Source: Microthyrium microscopicum (Eukaryota). From it: 64,000 bases of DNA. The position numbers and the translations under genes were made by a program. Every line of letters starts with the position of its first letter. Position 1 is the first letter of the stretch. Under the pieces are notes generated by a model. The model was not told the origin of the DNA. It saw nothing but the letters and a program-made list of their open reading frames with translations, and made no database searches. This document shows positions 47,135 through 56,595 of the stretch, one piece after another. Where the stretch lies: positions 1,150,627 through 1,214,626 of the forward strand of contig MU004230.1 in NCBI GenBank assembly GCA_010405405.1. The letters run 5' to 3'.

Positions 47135-48483
47135 CTTGATGTATGAGTAGAGATGGCTTTCGTACGACTAATGAAGGTGTTTCCTGGGGCGAACAAGTCA
47201 TCCAATGCCAAACATGATACCAAGAAGAGAAATGGCAGGGCGAATATCTGACGGCAGGTATTCGTGGTTGCAATAATATCGGCTACTGAGACTAAATATG
47301 GGGTTTTGGGTTGTGTGCTTTTGGGTATCAAGTAGCAATGCCGAAGCCACCAACGCAACTAAAGATATATGAAAAAGTTTCATGGAAGATGGAGATCTCC
47401 GCGCGGTACTTCTTCTTTGATACTTAAAGGAACGACAAATATTAGATAGGCTTAAGACATTGTATGCACTACCGCACTAACTCGGCATGGCTTGTCCCAG
47501 TGCAGATTGAATATCTGGTTGCACGAACCTCGTTGGAGCAAGATCGATGTATCCAGATACTTTGGTATCAAACCAAGCGTTTTACTGTACCTACCTGCCA
47601 CCGGAATAATAGTCGAGTGAGACAATACGACTCATATCTGCCAGCAAAGCTCGTCCGGTCTCTGAGCAACAGCGAGCACATAACGAGCCAACAATGGCCA
47701 AAGGTCAAAACAGGCGGTGTTGAACGGGTAAACGCTCCGACATCAAACATGGGAAACCAAGTAACAAAGACATGAGAACTGCAGAGCATTGTTCACGACC
47801 AGGACAAGGCTGGTTCAGGTTGAACGTGGACCTATAAGGTTTTGACAACCTTAAAAACTGCCCAACGCGACAACGCCCTGCCGGCAGACGCATGCCTCGC
47901 GAGAGTTCCTCAGCTCGTTGGTCCTGGCTGTTCGGTGGCAACATTGAAGACGGTGCTGACTGAACCATCGTCGCTTTGAGTGTACGATTCTGCAATGAAG
48001 GAGAAAGTTTAGAGAGTGATGAGGAGAGCAGGTTTGGGGGATGAGAAATTGAGAATGAGGTTGGGCAGATGGACAGGGGTCAGAAGCGTGCTTTGATACA
48101 TCCATCAATCCACCAAGGGCATAATTGGACATGATCTGCATGCATGTATAGTTCTAAAAGTTCGGTTAATAAGGTCACTTGGTAAGAATAGGTTTGGGCG
48201 TTGGTGATGGTATGTATCCATTTTGTTCCTTCCTAATAGTACTAAAAATTCCGAGTGTTGCCGTCGAATGACTTCAATGAAGATGCAATTTGATCAATCA
48301 TCAGATTCACAAACAATGCAACTCCAAGGCACGAGTTAAGTGAAATGGTTCAATTTTTTCAGAACCAAAGTCATGATATCTTGTAGACATGACAAATGCT
48401 AAAACGAACAAGGCCCTGCAAACCAGCTAAAACTACCCAGGCTGGTATCTCCGCATCAAAACATTGCCTTCTCACTACCATCC

Positions 48484-50705
48484 TCACTGCACAAAGGCCT
48501 CCGGGGGAATGTTCGCCTTTGCCTGATTAAAGCTCTCCAGCGCAGTATCAAACTTCCATTCCGTCTGCTCCAGGCACATGGTGGCGTATTGCAGATTCAT
48601 GCCTGTTTGTCGCATGATCTCGGCCACCATTGCAGCACGTTCCTCCTCTGGGCTCATAGCCACCTGTGCTCCTGTCTCATACGCCTTGGTTCCACCATAG
48701 GACCGCACGACAAGCATGTCGCTGATGATTCCAACACCATCGGGATTGTTGCCTCCTGGACCAAGGATGAAGGTCCGATCGAAGCTTCGATGCTTGCGCT
48801 TGTTTGAATTTGTTGGATGCTCAAAGAACTCGCCGTGGATGGTTATGGTGAGCCCATTGACACCGTTTGGAGATTGGCCAGAGGGGTCACGAAGACCAGA
48901 GATCGGCACCGATTCCACAAGCCATTTGGATGCATCTTCCGATGAAGCATGTTGTGTCGGGGGAAGTGTTTTGAAAGACTCTCCAATTGAGCGCGATCCT
49001 TTTCGTTTGTTAGACTTCACTCGAAGTTTTGAATAGACAGATCACATACCTTTGTGTAATCGAGACTTTCTCACACCAGCACTAGTAAGTGTCCAAATGT
49101 TTCGGCTATTGTAAATCCAAGCATCCCATTCTCCTTTTCTTGGCTTAGGAGCGCTTGGGTCTCGTAAAGATTGGTTATTGACCGCGTACGAAAAGGTTGA
49201 GTTCTTATCGTAATAGTAGTTCAGTAATGTAGTCCGGTCAGTGTCAAAGCCTGCAAAGAAGGTTTGCAGAAACTTTGCACCAAGGCCGGTGGTGTCTTCG
49301 AAGAGTCCGGGAGAAATCTTTGGAGTGGCACCGTGAATCTGAATGCCTTCACGGTCAGCGGGGGTAATGACTGCACCGTCGACCAGTGCGAGTTTGGGGA
49401 AGGCCCGTAGGACATCCTTCTTGAATTCGGCAGTTTGCTCGATAGGATTGCCAGAAAGAATGATATGCTGGAGCTCGAGACATCTTCGGAAGTGAGAGAC
49501 TCCATCTATTCCGCCGATCTTGTTGTTGGAAAGGTCTAGATTCTGAATATCCGGAAATTCTAGAGCCAAAGGTCGAGCGATGGACGCGGAGTGCCAGCCA
49601 TTGTTGCTCAGGATGATACCAGTGACTGCTTCCTTTCGGGCCTCGGGAGTGGGGAAGACGTCTTCAAAAACGGCACAGAGTGCTGCAAACAGCTTTGTCG
49701 TGGTGTTGTTTGGCTGTTTTAGAAGTTCCTTCACATCGGGCTCTTCGCCAATGTTACTGAAATTTAGGACTTTAGTCTCAGCATCGTAGCGGGTGGTTAG
49801 AAGCTGTCGGAGTGTTTCTTTGAGAGATTCCGTCTCCTTGTTTGACTTGAAAGAGAATGCGGCTTGTCCAGGTGCAGGAGATCTTGCAGGCGAATCTCTA
49901 GCAGGTCTAGATCCACCAATTGCTCGAATATTGATGGTGGCCTGAGCGTACTCATAGCCATCGAGTTTGCTGAAAGCAGTTGAGTCTTCCGCTGTCACAT
50001 AGATATGTAGAACGTCTTTCTCGACTTTTGACTATATTTTCACAATGGTTAGTATAAATCTCAAATTAAAAAGTTGACCATCGCAGATCCGCCGAGGACC
50101 GTCAGAGTGACACCACGAGTGGAGGCACCTATGCCATCAAGACCCATAGAGAGCTTTTGCTATTTGTCAAGCGTCCAAGTAACCGGAGCTTCGGGAACTC
50201 CAGAATTGAATGCGGTCGAGAGGATATGGCTCGTCAGAAGACACAATTTGTGAACGTATGCTGCTTGTGCTTCGAATGCGCAATGCGCAAAGAGGATGAG
50301 GTTGGACAACACTGTGGTGGCCCCCGACTAAAATACGTGGCCATCTCCATGGAGGAAATGGGCTTATTCCAAGGACCGGTGGTTACACACCTTTCGAATT
50401 CTCACGTTCCCGCGTTTCTGGATTCCGGCGTGCTGTGGAAGTTTATCTTGTATCACCCGCGCCTTGCGCTCTAGCCATTGCGTGAGAGCTCGGATTAATG
50501 TTGAAGTGTTTTCGGTTGTCTTTACCGCGGCAGAGTCGGTCCATCCTGTGACCTGGAGATGGATAAGTGGTGACGAGCCAGAGCGCGTTGGCATAGGCCC
50601 GTTGTTGATTCGAGAAGAAAGACTGCTGCGTGACGCGATGGGTTCTCTAGTTGTTGCGCCGCGACCTCGACCTCGACCACGACGAGCTGGGCCTGTCGGC
50701 GGCAT
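48484..50705 (-). CDS. MEX67: mRNA export receptor Mex67 (NXF1/TAP orthologue), 3 exons
   Basis: RG-rich start, LRRs (IQNLDLSNNKI, IILSGNPI), NTF2-like domain (FFAGFDTDR..L..YY, HGEFFE, RSFDRTFILGP), UBA/TAP-C (QTGMNLQYATMCLEQTEW...IPPEAF); introns 50032-50390 and 48999-49049. Confidence 0.93.
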
Positions 50706-50925
50706 ATTGAAAGGTTGATGAGTGCGGAATAGATGTGGCGAAAGCTGTGTAGAAGCTGTGTGGAAGCTGTTTGTAAGCGGTAGAGGAGGATGGGAAAGAC
50801 GACGATAGCAAAAGCAGTTGGAGGAGAAGAAGAGCAATGAAAGGCTGAAGAGAATTGGTGGGTGGGTGGTGTTTTATGTTATTGACGGGGATGAAGGTGA
50901 TGTTGGGTTTTGCAAATGGCGAGGA

Positions 50926-50969
50926 TGAATGGGTGAATGAGTGAATGGGTGAATGGGTGAATGGGTGAA
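50926..50969. repeat. 8-bp tandem repeat (TGAATGGG) x5 upstream of MEX67
   Basis: tgaatggg tgaatgag tgaatggg tgaatggg tgaatggg tgaa. Confidence 0.85.
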
Positions 50970-51761
50970 GGATGTGTCGAGTGAAGGTTGGTGGAGAAAC
51001 CAAACCAAAGTAAAGGTGTGAGGTTGAGGTAGTTGTGAGCGGGACAAGAGAACAATGAGGAAGGCACGAGACAAAGCTGCGGGCAGTTGCGACCTGCGAC
51101 TGGTTGAGATGTTGGTCTCAGGAATGCCTCGTGGTTGCCTGATTTAATTTGACAGTTTTTGAGTCACCCAGCGCCAAGCCCGCTAAGCCTCTTTAGACTT
51201 CACTTTTGTTCCTTCAACTAAATTACCGCCAAATGAGATCATGAGAGATAGAATACAACATATATAGCGTAATATAGGTATGGGTTGAGCATTTTGAAAT
51301 AGGAGCGAAATCTTTGAGGATTATTCATGCGGGCACACAAAGGAACAAGGACATCGGGCTTCAAGCTGTGAGCCAATAAAACGGTTCAGAGCGAGATATA
51401 TCGAAATAGCACTATATTCATCTATATGAAGGCTATTTAAGGGTATATAAAATCAGAAAAGGACATCTTCTCATGCTGCATTGCCCCACTTGACCCAGAC
51501 AACCCCACTAAGAGAGAAGCGGCGACAGTTGATGGGTCAAAGTCAAATGTCATCAGAAAGCTCGCCATCCTCCCCCAAGTTTTCTCCAAACACTTTTGAG
51601 CTTCAGATACCCGTATCCAAGACCTCTTTGTTGATTACTTCTCCATTGGCCTCAATTGCTACTTCCCCATCACCATTTGCCAGACCAAACACTGATATCT
51701 TCCGCTCACACCCTCTGCTTAAGGCAATTTCGTAATCGCGCAAAATCTATAGCTTGCGACC

Positions 51762-52753
51762 ATGACTGAGGTAATTTCCACCGCTAATCTTATCAATCAG
51801 CATCTAATTCGTCTACAGGTCAAAGAAATCACCACAGAGGAGGCATACTCCAGCTTCGTCTCGTCCTTCCCCTCTTCCTCCCTCCTAGTCATATACTTCT
51901 ACGCATCATGGGCCCAGCCATGCAAGCAAATGTCCGCTGTCCTCGAGGCACTAGCCAGCACATACCCAGTCGAATCTCCCCCAACCATTGGCTTCATCTC
52001 CATGGACGCTGAAGAGCTCTCCTCCATAGCCGAAGAACATGATGTGACGGCCGTCCCCTTCGTCGTTCTCCAGAAAGATGGCAAGACACTAGAGTCCGTA
52101 TCAGGAAGCGATGCCGGCAAAGTGCGAGCAGCAGTTGAGAAGTACGCTGCGCAACCCGAGCAAACCAACGGCTTCAGTATACCACCAGCCCAGAAGGTCA
52201 CACGACCAACAGAGGAGAGAGAACCAGCACCTGCGCCAACAGGTGCTGCTGTGCCATCTACAACCGGCGCATCATCCGGAGCTTCAAAGGATCTGAGTGC
52301 GTATGTGCCCCCGGCTGATGCTCCAGCAACAGCACCGGAAGTTACAGGTGGAGAAGTGGACAAGGAAGCGCTATTCAAGCGTCTGGAGCAGCTCGTGAAG
52401 GCTGCACCCGTCATGCTCTTCATGAAAGGCATTCCCGCTTCTCCACAATGTGGATTCAGTAGACAGCTAGTTGCTATGCTTAGAGAACGGAGCATTCGCT
52501 ACGGATTCTTCAACATTCTTGCCGATGACGAAGTGCGGCAAGGCCTCAAAGAATTCTCCGACTGGCCTACCTTCCCACAACTCTATGTCGAGGGAGAGCT
52601 GATTGGAGGCTTGGACATAGTGAGTTCTTTCTGTCATACATTTTTCGGATACCAAAAGCTAATCAGTCATATCAGGTAAAAGAAGAGCTCAATAATAATC
52701 CAGAGTTCATGATGAACTATGCAGTCAAAGGACCCGAAGCAACAGCCGCCTAG
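51762..52753 (+). CDS. GRX4: Monothiol glutaredoxin with N-terminal thioredoxin domain (Grx3/4, GrxD), 3 exons
   Basis: WAQPC Trx-like site, PQCGFS, WPTFPQLY, GGLD; introns 51771-51818 and 52620-52675. Confidence 0.93.
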
Positions 52754-52944: not shown

Positions 52945-53786
52945 TCAAACCTTAACCTCCTGCGTCTCCTCCCTCAACGACTCCCTCGTCTCCAACCGTC
53001 TCTCCCTCCCCACCCGTGTCTCCGTCAACCAAACCCTCAACCGGATCAGATACCGTACCACCACAAACAACACGACCACCAACAACAGCACCCCAAAAAT
53101 GTACGCCGCTACTCGCCCACGCCCACCAGGCCTATGATAGTCCAAGAATCCATAAACATAGAAATGCTCCGTATCGACCGTGATGAACACCACGCCCAGA
53201 TACATCGCCAACAACACAACCAAGTACGCCAAATGAATCCACGGCATCGGTTCCGTGCGCGCAAACGTTATTTCCAAAAGCGCAAACACGCTATTGAGCG
53301 CATGTTCACTCAAATTACTCCATAATGTGAATGGCGTAGGTAAACTGGTGTATAACAGACTCCAAAACACAACTATTTATCCCATCATTAGCCTAAATTT
53401 ACTTCCCCCAAATCCATCGGAGGGAAGAAACACTTACTAGTCACAAGAAACGGAAATACCACAATCGTGCTATAAAACAGCGAATGTAGCTTTCCCAGCA
53501 CACCAGGCCATCGCGCCAAAGCAGGTGTACCAGTACGCCAATAACTCAAGCTATGGTATGCGGCAAACGCGTGGTAGAAACCGAGACTGATGAATGTTAT
53601 GTTGGTGAAGTAACTCCAGTATCTGGCGACTTCGACAGGTGAGTTGTGCGAGTCCCAGGCGAGGATGGTTAGTATGGATGTTAGGATGTAGAGGGATATG
53701 AGGGCGCGGAATGCGGCGTATGTTTTGGCGGTGAGGGCCCAGCTGGTGGAGAAACGGATTGGGTCGGCGGGTGGGAGGAGGATCAT
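52945..53786 (-). CDS. Multi-pass membrane protein, FAR-17a/AIG1-like, 2 exons
   Basis: YWSYFTNITF, FPFLVTIVFW across intron 53373-53437, SEHALNS, FYVYGFLD. Confidence 0.75.
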
Positions 53787-56595
53787 TTCTGCGGTAGGAG
53801 GTTTGGAGAGGGAAAGGGATGGGTAGATGGAAGGAGGAAGGGAAGGGGGGATGTTATTGTTGAATGTTGGGGAGAGACAAAGAGTGCGGCTGAGAAGGAA
53901 TGAGGTTTCGCTTGATTCAGCCACGAATTTACGAATTTGGTGTTTTGTGGTCTTGTGCTGCGGTCAGCCTAGCGCTTGCAATTGACGACAAGTCAAGAGG
54001 GCTGACATGTGTAGAGAGGCATTTAGGCATATACGAGGCTTTTCTATAGGGATGTAGAGTATATACGCTACTAGTATAGTGTGTTTGTTCTAAGAAGTGT
54101 TGTTGTACCATAGTTTCGAAACTAACCTGTCAGCACTGCCGATCTTGTGAAACACCGGAAATAGGTTCTTGGTATTAGATGGGGTATATGTGATGAGTTA
54201 TAGGTTTAACATTGGTGCTGTGTAGAGTTTTCTCTATATCCGAAATATGGGGTTGGTATAATACTGAAAACTGAGTGAAGTGGGTAAAATGCTTGAGTAA
54301 TTTAGAATACTCTAGCGGGATTGTAGTTTAGTAAAGTTCACTCGAAATGAATCTCAAGGACAATGAATAGTTCTGTAAACTATAAAGTCTCTAGACGACT
54401 GGCTAGCACAGTATTCACAAGCGGAACACAGCGAGACAAGAAGCTATCTTCGAGTCTGGTTATTGCAAGTGTAGTACGTGAGACGTTAGACACTGACGAC
54501 CTTGATGGTAATCTAAGAGCATTTTCAAGACTTCGGGAAAGTCAGAAAGAGTATCTCGTTGCTTACCTGAAATGATCGAAAAGATCGTTGTGCCAAATCT
54601 TTGGATCAGTGTCGCGGAGGAGTCTTGTTAAGACATATCTCATAGCAATGAGGGTGTACATATTGAAATACAGAATAATGAGAGATATGGATCTTCAGTG
54701 GAACGGGGGCCAATGGCGAGAAGGAAATGACGGATTAGATCCCAAAGTCACATTGATTTTTACATAGAATGATGATTTATGCATGGGAATAAAGCTTTTA
54801 ATCTTTTCCTTGAGATCATTGAGGACCCATCTCTAATGTGGATACAACAAACGATAGTAGCAGCTCACCTTTCGAGGCTCTGCTCGCAAAAATCTCTCAA
54901 GCCTCACATCATTAACTCTTATCAACTTCATATTGTTCCATTGAAGTGAAAGAATGAACTTGCAGTACTTGCAATGCCCTCTTCAACAGAAAATTCATTT
55001 TTGTAGGCGTAAGGCTGAAATGCTTGGCTATCAGGCTGAAAATATCAAAAACATTATATTGCGTTTGAAAGCCGATAAATGTCTCTTTTTGTGGTTCGCG
55101 GACCATTAGAAACTCTCAAACAATTGCTTTCATGCTCAAGCTTCTCGTGCCTCTTTTTCAGGGACGTGTTGCAGTTTACAATTGTTCATGGACGCGCTTA
55201 GTTGCTCACAGTGCTGCTCCATTTCTCCAAGCACAAGCTTCCAGGGACTCAGAGAAGAGGTCCAGAGGCAGCGACTTCGATTCTTGCGTCCATGCGTCGA
55301 GCTGTTGCGAGTCTTAACATTATTCATCTAATCTTTCTTGACTTCCATCTCGATAAGGGAAGCCTTATCCTATACTGCCACGTATCCCAGCCACTCTGCC
55401 GCTTTGATACTCCCTTTCACATTGCCCCCTTTTATGCGCAGATCCTGAAATTGAGATACTGGAAGGTCGGCAATACTGACCACATGATAACATACGTGGT
55501 ACCAACCGTTATTGTCAATATCAGGCCTCCGCGTGCTATCACTGACCGGCAACCAACAGTGCAAACCCTTTTGCCAAAGACTTGCAGATGCTCTGCGAAT
55601 GGTAGTCATGCCTCAACGTGGTACCGCATGGAAATGCCGCTTAGAATAATTAGGCTGATCGGACATGAGGCATCCATCCTTGTGTGGCTATAGCAGGCGA
55701 ACAACCAGTTGCCTTGTTCCTCTGACCGGTCGTGTCAACCAGTTCCGGTGAGTGGGTCAAGGGGTTCAGCTAATTTGCACTTAATGTCCTTGTTCCGGGG
55801 GTTTGAGCCATTGAGAGTGGCGAACATGATGGTGGTGCTAAGGAGTGGCTCTACACAGCCGTTGAGATTGAACTAGTTGTTGCTGTTTGATTCTGCGATA
55901 TTCTGCCGATTTCTGGAAAAGAGGTCGGAACAAGGATCGATCTCTTGGATTTCGGCAATGTGAGTTAGTTCATTGTCTAACATGGCAGCAATGTCAGCGT
56001 TGAGAAGTGTTGCTGAGTGGCAACCATATATTTATCCTTATCTGGTCATGTATCGCTGCGGCTCGTAAACGAGCCGAGAGCATCTTATGTTCTCAAGGTT
56101 TTGTTTCGACGTAAGTTGATCTTCCCGTTCAAAGCTCTTTGGTGTCATGCACAACATAAATCCTAAGAACGATGCGTTGTCACTTATCTGCATGGCGTGC
56201 AAGGACGATATTGCTCCCATGTTGTCTCATTACCATTTGGTGTTGCACACTTACCTATCGGTTGGTCTGTCTATAAGATTGGCATGAAAATTCTATCTTG
56301 ATATACGCCCTCATGATTGTCCTCGGATTTGGAACCGAAAGTGACCCTGTTCGAGTGGTCTATTGTTTAAAATTGTGTACCGTCATACCGGGATAAAAGT
56401 CCAGACAACCTTCAGAAGAATACTGCGGTTGATAATCCCGGTAAGTGAAGTCTAAGTCATCTTCTAGTATTTGAAATTAGCCTTAAGATCTAACAAGAGT
56501 GGATGTAGAACCTCTACCGCGCAGCTCTCGTGGATACCATTCTCAAGCCAGCATATTTACCTAGAAAGTTTTTCACCCTTTTGGCTCGAATCAGC

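Follow-up and report, generated by a model that had tools for sequence, protein, structure and literature searches.

A partly retained first intron of MEX67 in Microthyrium microscopicum, at an intron site shared with related fungi

Retained introns in genes for mRNA export

The gene for the vertebrate mRNA export receptor NXF1/TAP carries a constitutive transport element (CTE) in its intron 10, and PMC4338338 reports BLAST homologues of this element only in mammals, zebrafish and coelacanth. In Saccharomyces cerevisiae, the intron of YRA1 contains several cis elements that control the fate of the unspliced precursor mRNA (pre-mRNA), with decay through Edc3p and with Mex67p in the precursor messenger ribonucleoprotein, as described in PMC2864733. 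Unproductive splicing by means of ultraconserved intronic or exonic elements is described for genes of RNA-binding proteins (PMC4379411). Comparative screens have also found conserved RNA motifs in introns of Pezizomycotina, several of which were proposed to control the splicing of their hosts (PMC5640933, PMC8216456). The words 'MEX67', 'export' and 'NXF' have 0 occurrences each in the main texts of these two papers, whose supplements may list more. Here, we describe the first intron of MEX67 in a stretch of DNA from Microthyrium microscopicum (64,000 nucleotides of contig MU004230.1; the whole of this 64-kb stretch is called the window). In this minus-strand gene, intron 1 (50032..50390, 359 nt) was found partly unspliced in one RNA data set and carries an in-frame stop shortly after the donor, and the site of the intron is shared with orthologous genes of related fungi. 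A literature search for MEX67 or NXF1 together with retention, autoregulation, conserved introns, fungi and nonsense-mediated decay returned no report of a conserved or retained fungal MEX67 intron.

Intron 10 of vertebrate NXF1 lies between domains. The fungal intron differs from it (PMC4338338) in falling within the N-terminal RRM-like region, upstream of the leucine-rich repeats (LRR). It also has no detectable likeness to it in structure or sequence, and the predicted product of the retained form is a stub without a domain. The two are alike in that both genes belong to the NXF/Mex67 family of export receptors and that the retained intron brings an early stop into the transcript. The analogy with NXF1/TAP drawn in an earlier annotation made from the letters of this DNA (below, the sequence-only reading) thus holds as a functional likeness and fails for position, structure and sequence. 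YRA1 resembles the locus as a gene for an mRNA-export factor with an intron that governs the fate of its transcript, which for MEX67 would be so in the reading proposed below; the gene and the elements are different, and Edc3p decay is a feature of YRA1 (PMC2864733). We place the intron with the retained, unproductive introns of RNA-export and RNA-processing genes.

Partial retention of intron 1 in RNA

The RNA evidence comes from one run (X5), for which mean k-mer depths of unstranded contigs were used; its label as RNA is only an index guess. None of the matching runs is recorded as RNA; we took X5 as RNA on account of two canonical splice joints in its contigs, of 51 nt and 359 nt, which both read CT..AC on the plus strand. 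An exon contig with a depth of 1503.3 begins about 260 nt downstream of the stop codon, continues through the joint of the spliced intron 2 and ends exactly at the boundary of intron 1. The spliced joint of intron 1 (50031/50391) is present in a contig of 58 nt with a depth of 937.5, and a gapless contig of 417 nt (50004-50420) runs through the unspliced sequence with a depth of 384.4. As 417 nt equals 359 nt plus two flanks of 29 nt, the longer contig represents an alternative path through unspliced intron 1. From these contig depths, the unspliced share of intron 1 is 384.4/(384.4 + 937.5) = 0.29. Intron 2 was only seen spliced, with the exon contig running through it without branching. We take unspliced intron 1 to be much more abundant, relatively, than any unspliced intron 2. 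Retention in RNA, which the sequence-only reading had proposed as a check, was thus found in this one data set. In X5, no contig covers 50475-50900, a stretch that takes in most of exon 1; such holes prove nothing. Of the other runs, X6 and X7 yielded the same sequence at low depth and one unrelated piece, and so no diverged relative, and X3 yielded no matching contig.

An unspliced contig could also stem from residual DNA or from a transcript that is antisense to the gene or overlaps it. The X5 contigs hold no strand information, and the plus strand has a frame of 134 codons at 50070-50474, antisense to exon 1 and intron 1, with a match to the Pfam family Zn_ribbon_NOB1 (E 0.0014, 19.1 bits). 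This match is below its threshold (cut-off 24.9), and the frame is probably due to chance. The unspliced contig fills the bubble between the exon flanks exactly, as expected of sense pre-mRNA, and the exon contig has an mRNA-like 3′ end with no genomic continuation. Since the exon contig ends in this way and is unbranched at intron 2, the path through unspliced intron 1 was taken as RNA and not as DNA contamination. We consider an antisense or genomic origin of the contig highly improbable.

The in-frame TAA pointed out by the sequence-only reading is present at 50366-50364, after 8 codons of the intron, and a retained transcript would encode 105 + 8 = 113 aa. The premature stop lies upstream of a further exon junction, that of intron 2. 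The 113-aa product ends inside the RRM-like region, without a complete domain.

Intron 1 is a genuine spliceosomal GT-AG intron, as judged from its canonical ends, a near branch site, its removal in RNA and the restored reading frame. The donor GTGTGT (50385..50390) has AAG just before it, and the branch site TACTAAC (50048..50054) has its branch A at 50049, 17 nt from the acceptor TATAG. That the first intron is unusually long had been claimed earlier, and its 359 nt (50390..50032) are real, since the joint was found in an RNA contig. The introns of 42-130 nt with which it had been compared were re-derived only for intron 2 (49049..48999, 51 nt). Orthologous introns at the same site, of 161-350 nt, are a better comparator of length than neighbouring introns, and the window intron is the longest of the 37 unique introns considered. 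The donor had been called non-consensus. It is the only GTGTGT among these 37 introns, in which GTATGT occurs 27 times, GTACGT 4 times, GTACAC 3 times and GTAAGT twice; it still fits GTRNGT, the loose donor pattern of fungi. The interior is GC-richer, as had been stated (GC 0.485 in intron 1 vs 0.35 in the 51-nt intron 2; 0.477 in the window). With regard to an origin of the extra length from a repeat or transposon, no part of the intron recurs in the rest of the window, where the best match has 17 nt (E 0.22).

The whole gene occupies 48484-50705 and consists of three exons and two introns, with 603 codons. Its three open reading frames (ORFs) match the Pfam families NXF_NTF2 and TAP_C above threshold and LRR_NXF1-5 more weakly, below its cut-off; by these families, the gene is classed as a Mex67/NXF1-type mRNA export receptor. 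Exon 1 (50391..50705; ATG at 50705-50703; 105 codons), delimited from the sequence and an alignment of homologues, encodes an RG-rich N-terminus and the beginning of the RRM-like region, and no Pfam family matched it. Intron 1 follows in phase 0, between K105 and S106. Exon 2 (49050..50031), which is represented in an RNA contig, encodes the rest of the RRM-like region, the LRR and the start of the NTF2-like domain (NXF_NTF2, 4.2e-16; LRR_NXF1-5 weak). Intron 2 (48999..49049) was placed from its RNA joint, which skips 51 nt with CT..AC on the plus strand and the cut at +1. Exon 3 (48484..48998), which ends with its ORF at the stop codon 48486-48484, encodes NTF2-like and TAP-C/UBA domains (NXF_NTF2, 9.4e-22; TAP_C, 8e-20). 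Exon 2 matches, with 100% identity along its whole length, a protein of 603 aa from the dothideomycete Microthyrium microscopicum that databases name NTF2-like protein / mRNA export factor MEX67. The spliced model has the same length of 603 aa. At the junction, IRK/SKVE aligns without a gap to the conserved IKK/S.VEG of nine homologues, which leaves no room for a hidden exon in intron 1.

The sequence-only reading had proposed a structured element in intron 1 and, as an alternative, a hosted non-coding RNA (ncRNA). In the fold of minimum free energy (MFE), intron 1 gave z = -0.78, and 21 of 100 shuffled sequences folded at least as well. Four hairpins of at least 7 bp were observed where 2.1 were expected (P 0.22), and the longest stem had 8 bp (P 0.44). 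The three stems that had been named are all part of the MFE fold: two hairpins with an 8-bp stem and a 5-nt loop (50183..50203 and 50341..50361) and a short palindromic hairpin (50277..50289), all on the minus strand. They are no more than expected by chance. No Rfam family matched intron 1 when 47500-51500 was scanned at E up to 10, a comparison with Rfam having been suggested earlier. ARAGORN found no tRNA in intron 1, and none of the 32 matches to the C box RTGATGA on both strands of the window lies inside it. H/ACA boxes were inspected by eye only; the features of an intron-hosted small nucleolar RNA (snoRNA) were not found.

These results bear on two of the alternatives. If intron 1 were a true analogue of NXF1 intron 10, a structured transport element bound by Mex67 would let the unspliced mRNA be exported and translated into a short N-terminal isoform. 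The gene family is the same, and the retained intron has an early stop. By fold, hairpins, Rfam and conservation, no conserved, stably folded element of the CTE type was found in intron 1, though Rfam may lack a model of the CTE. According to PMC4338338, BLAST detects no homologue of the vertebrate element in birds, reptiles, C. elegans or Drosophila, and fungi are unmentioned there. The 113-aa product, moreover, has no complete domain and ends in the RRM-like region. The short isoform of vertebrate NXF1 is said to keep the RNA-binding part. We regard such an analogue as very unlikely. The other alternative is that the intron hosts a snoRNA or a similar small ncRNA, which would be released after splicing. 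The length of the intron and its coding-like GC content fit a host intron, and intron-hosted snoRNAs are described as common in Pezizomycotina (PMC8216456). With no Rfam match, no C box on either strand, no tRNA and no conservation with the orthologous introns, we find little room for a hosted ncRNA and hold it to be most improbable.

The intron site and its core in relatives

Orthologous MEX67 loci were collected from metagenome contigs scanned with protein alignment. The scan gave 467 pattern matches, of which 96 encode a relative, and the best 80 of these 96 were used. For modelling of the site, ten reference proteins were split at the junction and each half was searched with tblastn, which gave a clean exon pair in 57 of the best 80 loci; the remaining 23 were partial or too distant. 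In 50 of the best 80 loci (50/57 modelled), a GT-AG intron is present at the identical phase-0 codon boundary. No intron was found at the site in 6 of the 57 modelled loci, namely L002, where the boundary residues are contiguous, and five yeast-like loci of the S. cerevisiae type (L064, L066, L069, L070 and L077), which are about 30% identical to the filamentous sequences. One modelled locus (L039) was mis-modelled. A further locus (L010), with no clean exon pair in the split-half modelling, seems to be intronless from a single uninterrupted tblastn match.

The 50 loci represent 36 unique introns, 35 of them of 161-214 nt and one (L052) of 350 nt. The reading frame after the intron is unbroken in all 50 loci, for 498-574 codons to the stop or, in shorter loci, to the end of the contig. 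The window intron shares the phase-0 boundary ..[IV][KR]K / S.. of these loci (IRK/SKVE) but, at 359 nt, falls outside the range of 161-214 nt. No second intron was seen in the modelled loci, so that the 51-nt intron 2 of the window has no counterpart there. This suggests that intron 2 (GC 0.35) is either a lineage-specific gain or a kept intron that was lost elsewhere. The 350-nt intron of L052 (L052:3261-3610) has a run of triplet-like repeats of the GCC/ACT type in its second half, which accounts for much of the added length. By this sequence, it is an example of how simple-repeat expansion can lengthen the intron at this site. Three loci (L013:6262-6432, L014:5825-6000 and L015:989-1164) have the donor GTACAC, with A for G at +5, as a lineage-conserved feature.

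Orthologous introns of different groups share a block of about 45-50 nt near their middle, in which ACGACG is near-invariant and the 5′ part is of the GGTCCGC type (L001:1594-1645, L014:5866-5913, L035:5885-5934, L046:5873-5925 and 38 further loci). A profile hidden Markov model (HMM) of this core was built from 28 introns, and matches to the members of the profile are therefore circular. The profile gave exactly one match per locus in 42 of the best 80 loci, and every match lies inside the intron and on the sense strand. Matches outside the respective training sets were found in L022 with the HMM and in L043 with a covariance model (CM; 23 bits, E 6e-4), both upstream of exon 2. Altogether, 27 of the 36 unique introns have a detectable core. 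It is strong in all three loci with the GTACAC donor. The nine unique introns in which it was undetected are L018, L028, L031, L041, L045, L052, L056, L067 and L068, from which it follows that the core was lost or strongly diverged more than once. In L052 the core is degenerate and under the detection threshold.

The loci with a core include Dothideomycetes-like ones, with 55-73% identity to proteins of Acidomyces, Recurvomyces, Rachicladosporium and Zasmidium, and Lecanoromycetes-like ones, with 59-83% identity to proteins of Lecanora, Psora, Dirinaria and others. Between the two groups, the core is 58-84% identical at the nucleotide level (mean 74%, 24 pairs), and the adjoining protein, taken as the first 350 residues downstream, is 42-53% identical at the amino acid level (mean 47%). 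As the intronic core is better conserved than the protein, it appears to be under purifying selection. In this respect the orthologues resemble the ultraconserved-element cases of PMC4379411, in which RNA-processing factor genes likewise acquire premature stops. They are unlike those cases, which involve poison exons or alternative sites, in that only retention of the whole intron was seen here, and the window species is without a conserved element.

A scan of 8 loci against Rfam 15, with E up to 1, gave no family that matches the core. A two-helix hairpin of 12 pairs was evaluated on the core alignment: 88.5% of the cells are paired vs 87.7% in shuffled alignments, and its covariation score was reached by 57 of 500 shuffles. 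With RNAalifold, whole-intron alignments of three subgroups gave small helices only (-8.7, -7.5 and -1.8). The fungal motifs of the published screens have structures supported by covariation (PMC5640933, PMC8216456), whereas the MEX67 core is without significant covariation. The core could act as a site for a protein on RNA, as an RNA structure too conserved to covary or as a DNA element.

Several other roles of the core were tried and rejected. Pairing of its 3′ half with exon 1 or with the 5′ splice site gave z from -1.3 to +1.9 and no common target (14 loci of 26 unique core sequences). A mini-hairpin that hides the 5′ splice site, with at least 4 bp, forms in 24 of the 37 introns, but the mean shuffle P is 0.59. 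A poison exon, an internal 3′ splice site, a CCAAT box and a snoRNA were dismissed on inspection only, as AG, CCAAT and box motifs are unconserved. In a few Dothideomycetes-like loci we noticed by eye that GUCGUCG at positions +5 to +11 of the intron is complementary to CGACGAC in the invariant stretch of the core (L001:1543-1560/1630-1645; L029:173-190/255-275; L004:5114-5130/5205-5224). In L029, changes on both sides preserve the pairing (GUCGCCG with CGGCGAC). This complementarity is absent from most lineages, and the duplex test did not single it out.

The core was not found in the window intron. The nhmmer profile gave no match there, either in a search of the whole window or with the intron alone at E up to 1000. 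The covariance model of the core (R1), run with filters off, found none in 50032-50390 and 11 chance-level matches elsewhere in the window. When the interior of the intron, with splice signals trimmed, was compared with the 36 orthologous introns, the best local score was 24, which was reached by 30% of 200 shuffles. By this comparison, the window intron resembles none of the orthologous introns, and no conservation of its sequence was found. Two likenesses to the core picked out by eye, a GGTCC stretch near each end of the intron and a 17-nt match to L044, were not significant.

The protein of the window is divergent as well. The nearest other Mex67 proteins found are just 37-38% identical to it, in contrast to the 55-73% identity to named proteins among the other Dothideomycetes-like sequences. 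By these identities, the window Mex67 is a long branch, and it may be either a fast-evolving orthologue or a paralogue. Unless the gene is a paralogue, the protein and its intron have both diverged unusually far.

The 5′ untranslated region or the promoter of MEX67 contains two short tandem arrays just before the ATG, an 11-mer repeated 3.4 times at 50742-50778 and an 8-mer (TGAATGGG, plus strand) repeated 5.5 times at 50926-50969. Further upstream, the plus strand at 51763-52753 encodes a thioredoxin-glutaredoxin fusion (Pfam Thioredoxin, 1.6e-15; Glutaredoxin, 6.4e-19) with apparently two introns of about 50 nt, and the minus strand at 52945-53963 encodes a FAR-17a/AIG1-like membrane protein (1.3e-07).

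Controlled or inefficient splicing

The explanation that we favour, and to which we give an even chance, is that intron 1 is a partly retained, unproductive intron that sets the amount of productive MEX67 mRNA and was inherited from an ancient controlled intron. Intron 1 is incompletely spliced, with about 3 in 10 transcripts keeping it, as estimated from the single RNA data set, and the retained transcripts, with their stop after 8 intron codons, can encode only the 113-aa stub. Under this explanation, the retained transcripts would be degraded or detained, and unproductive splicing of the retention type would set the level of productive MEX67 mRNA. Retention would be regulated rather than passive, with Mex67 or a partner as the regulator. 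By analogy with NXF1 intron 10 and YRA1, Mex67 itself may have this role, and autoregulation of MEX67 through intron 1 is plausible. The intron would descend from an ancient one at which splicing was a controlled step; in Microthyrium its length has doubled, and the core can no longer be recognised. For the relatives, the fixed position, the unbroken downstream frame, the constrained long length and the core together argue that splicing at this site is likely a controlled step in Pezizomycotina. Such conservation at the level of the family is what one would expect of a regulated intron.

The main rival, to which we assign a substantial probability though one short of even, is passive inefficiency, in which an ordinary intron has grown by neutral insertion and the unspliced reads are pre-mRNA or noise without a regulatory function. 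Greater length would lower the efficiency of removal in fungi whose introns are recognised as units. Neither sequence nor structure is conserved in the window intron, the ancestral core is gone while the gene was kept, and the 350-nt intron of L052 illustrates neutral expansion by a simple triplet-like repeat at the same site. The branch site is also perfect and the donor acceptable, and the RNA data set is a single one. What speaks against this rival is that an unspliced share of about 29% is high for steady-state RNA, that intron 2 has no unspliced path and that the site is clearly constrained in relatives.

Several points weigh against the favoured explanation. The figure of 29% retention was obtained from one run, from k-mer depths of contigs and under a guessed RNA label. 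It may be ordinary for long introns in X5, where MEX67 is the sole gene compared, and the contrast with the 51-nt intron 2 is soft, as bubble-popping by the assembler could hide weak retention there. Intron 1 has no excess structure. It has neither the core nor any similarity to the orthologous introns, and the argument from the family is hence not directly transferable to it. The identity of only 37-38% means that the window gene may be fast-evolving or a paralogue. As to the core itself, its covariation is not significant, RNAalifold predicts nothing on the core alignment, and the core could act at the DNA level.

A broader version of the favoured explanation would extend it to filamentous ascomycetes in general. 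They would tune the splicing of MEX67 against its retention through the core, read by Mex67 or a partner, and Microthyrium would have a remodelled version that is still retained but depends on a different cis element. The core would be shared by at least the Dothideomycetes-like and Lecanoromycetes-like lineages. We put this forward as a speculative and rather unlikely extension.

For the window alone, the outcome is more modest, namely a real, partly retained intron in which the flagged stems are due to chance, and the conserved core in relatives is a more interesting lead than the window intron. Mex67/NXF1 exports bulk mRNA, and its dosage therefore matters to every gene. A retained, stop-bearing MEX67 intron would offer a testable handle on Mex67 dosage in fungi, parallel to NXF1 and YRA1. 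The long-kept site, with a core that is better conserved than the protein across fungal classes, would offer a second one. Were control of MEX67 through the core to prove true, filamentous ascomycetes would have arrived independently at the logic known from vertebrate NXF1 intron 10 and from yeast YRA1.

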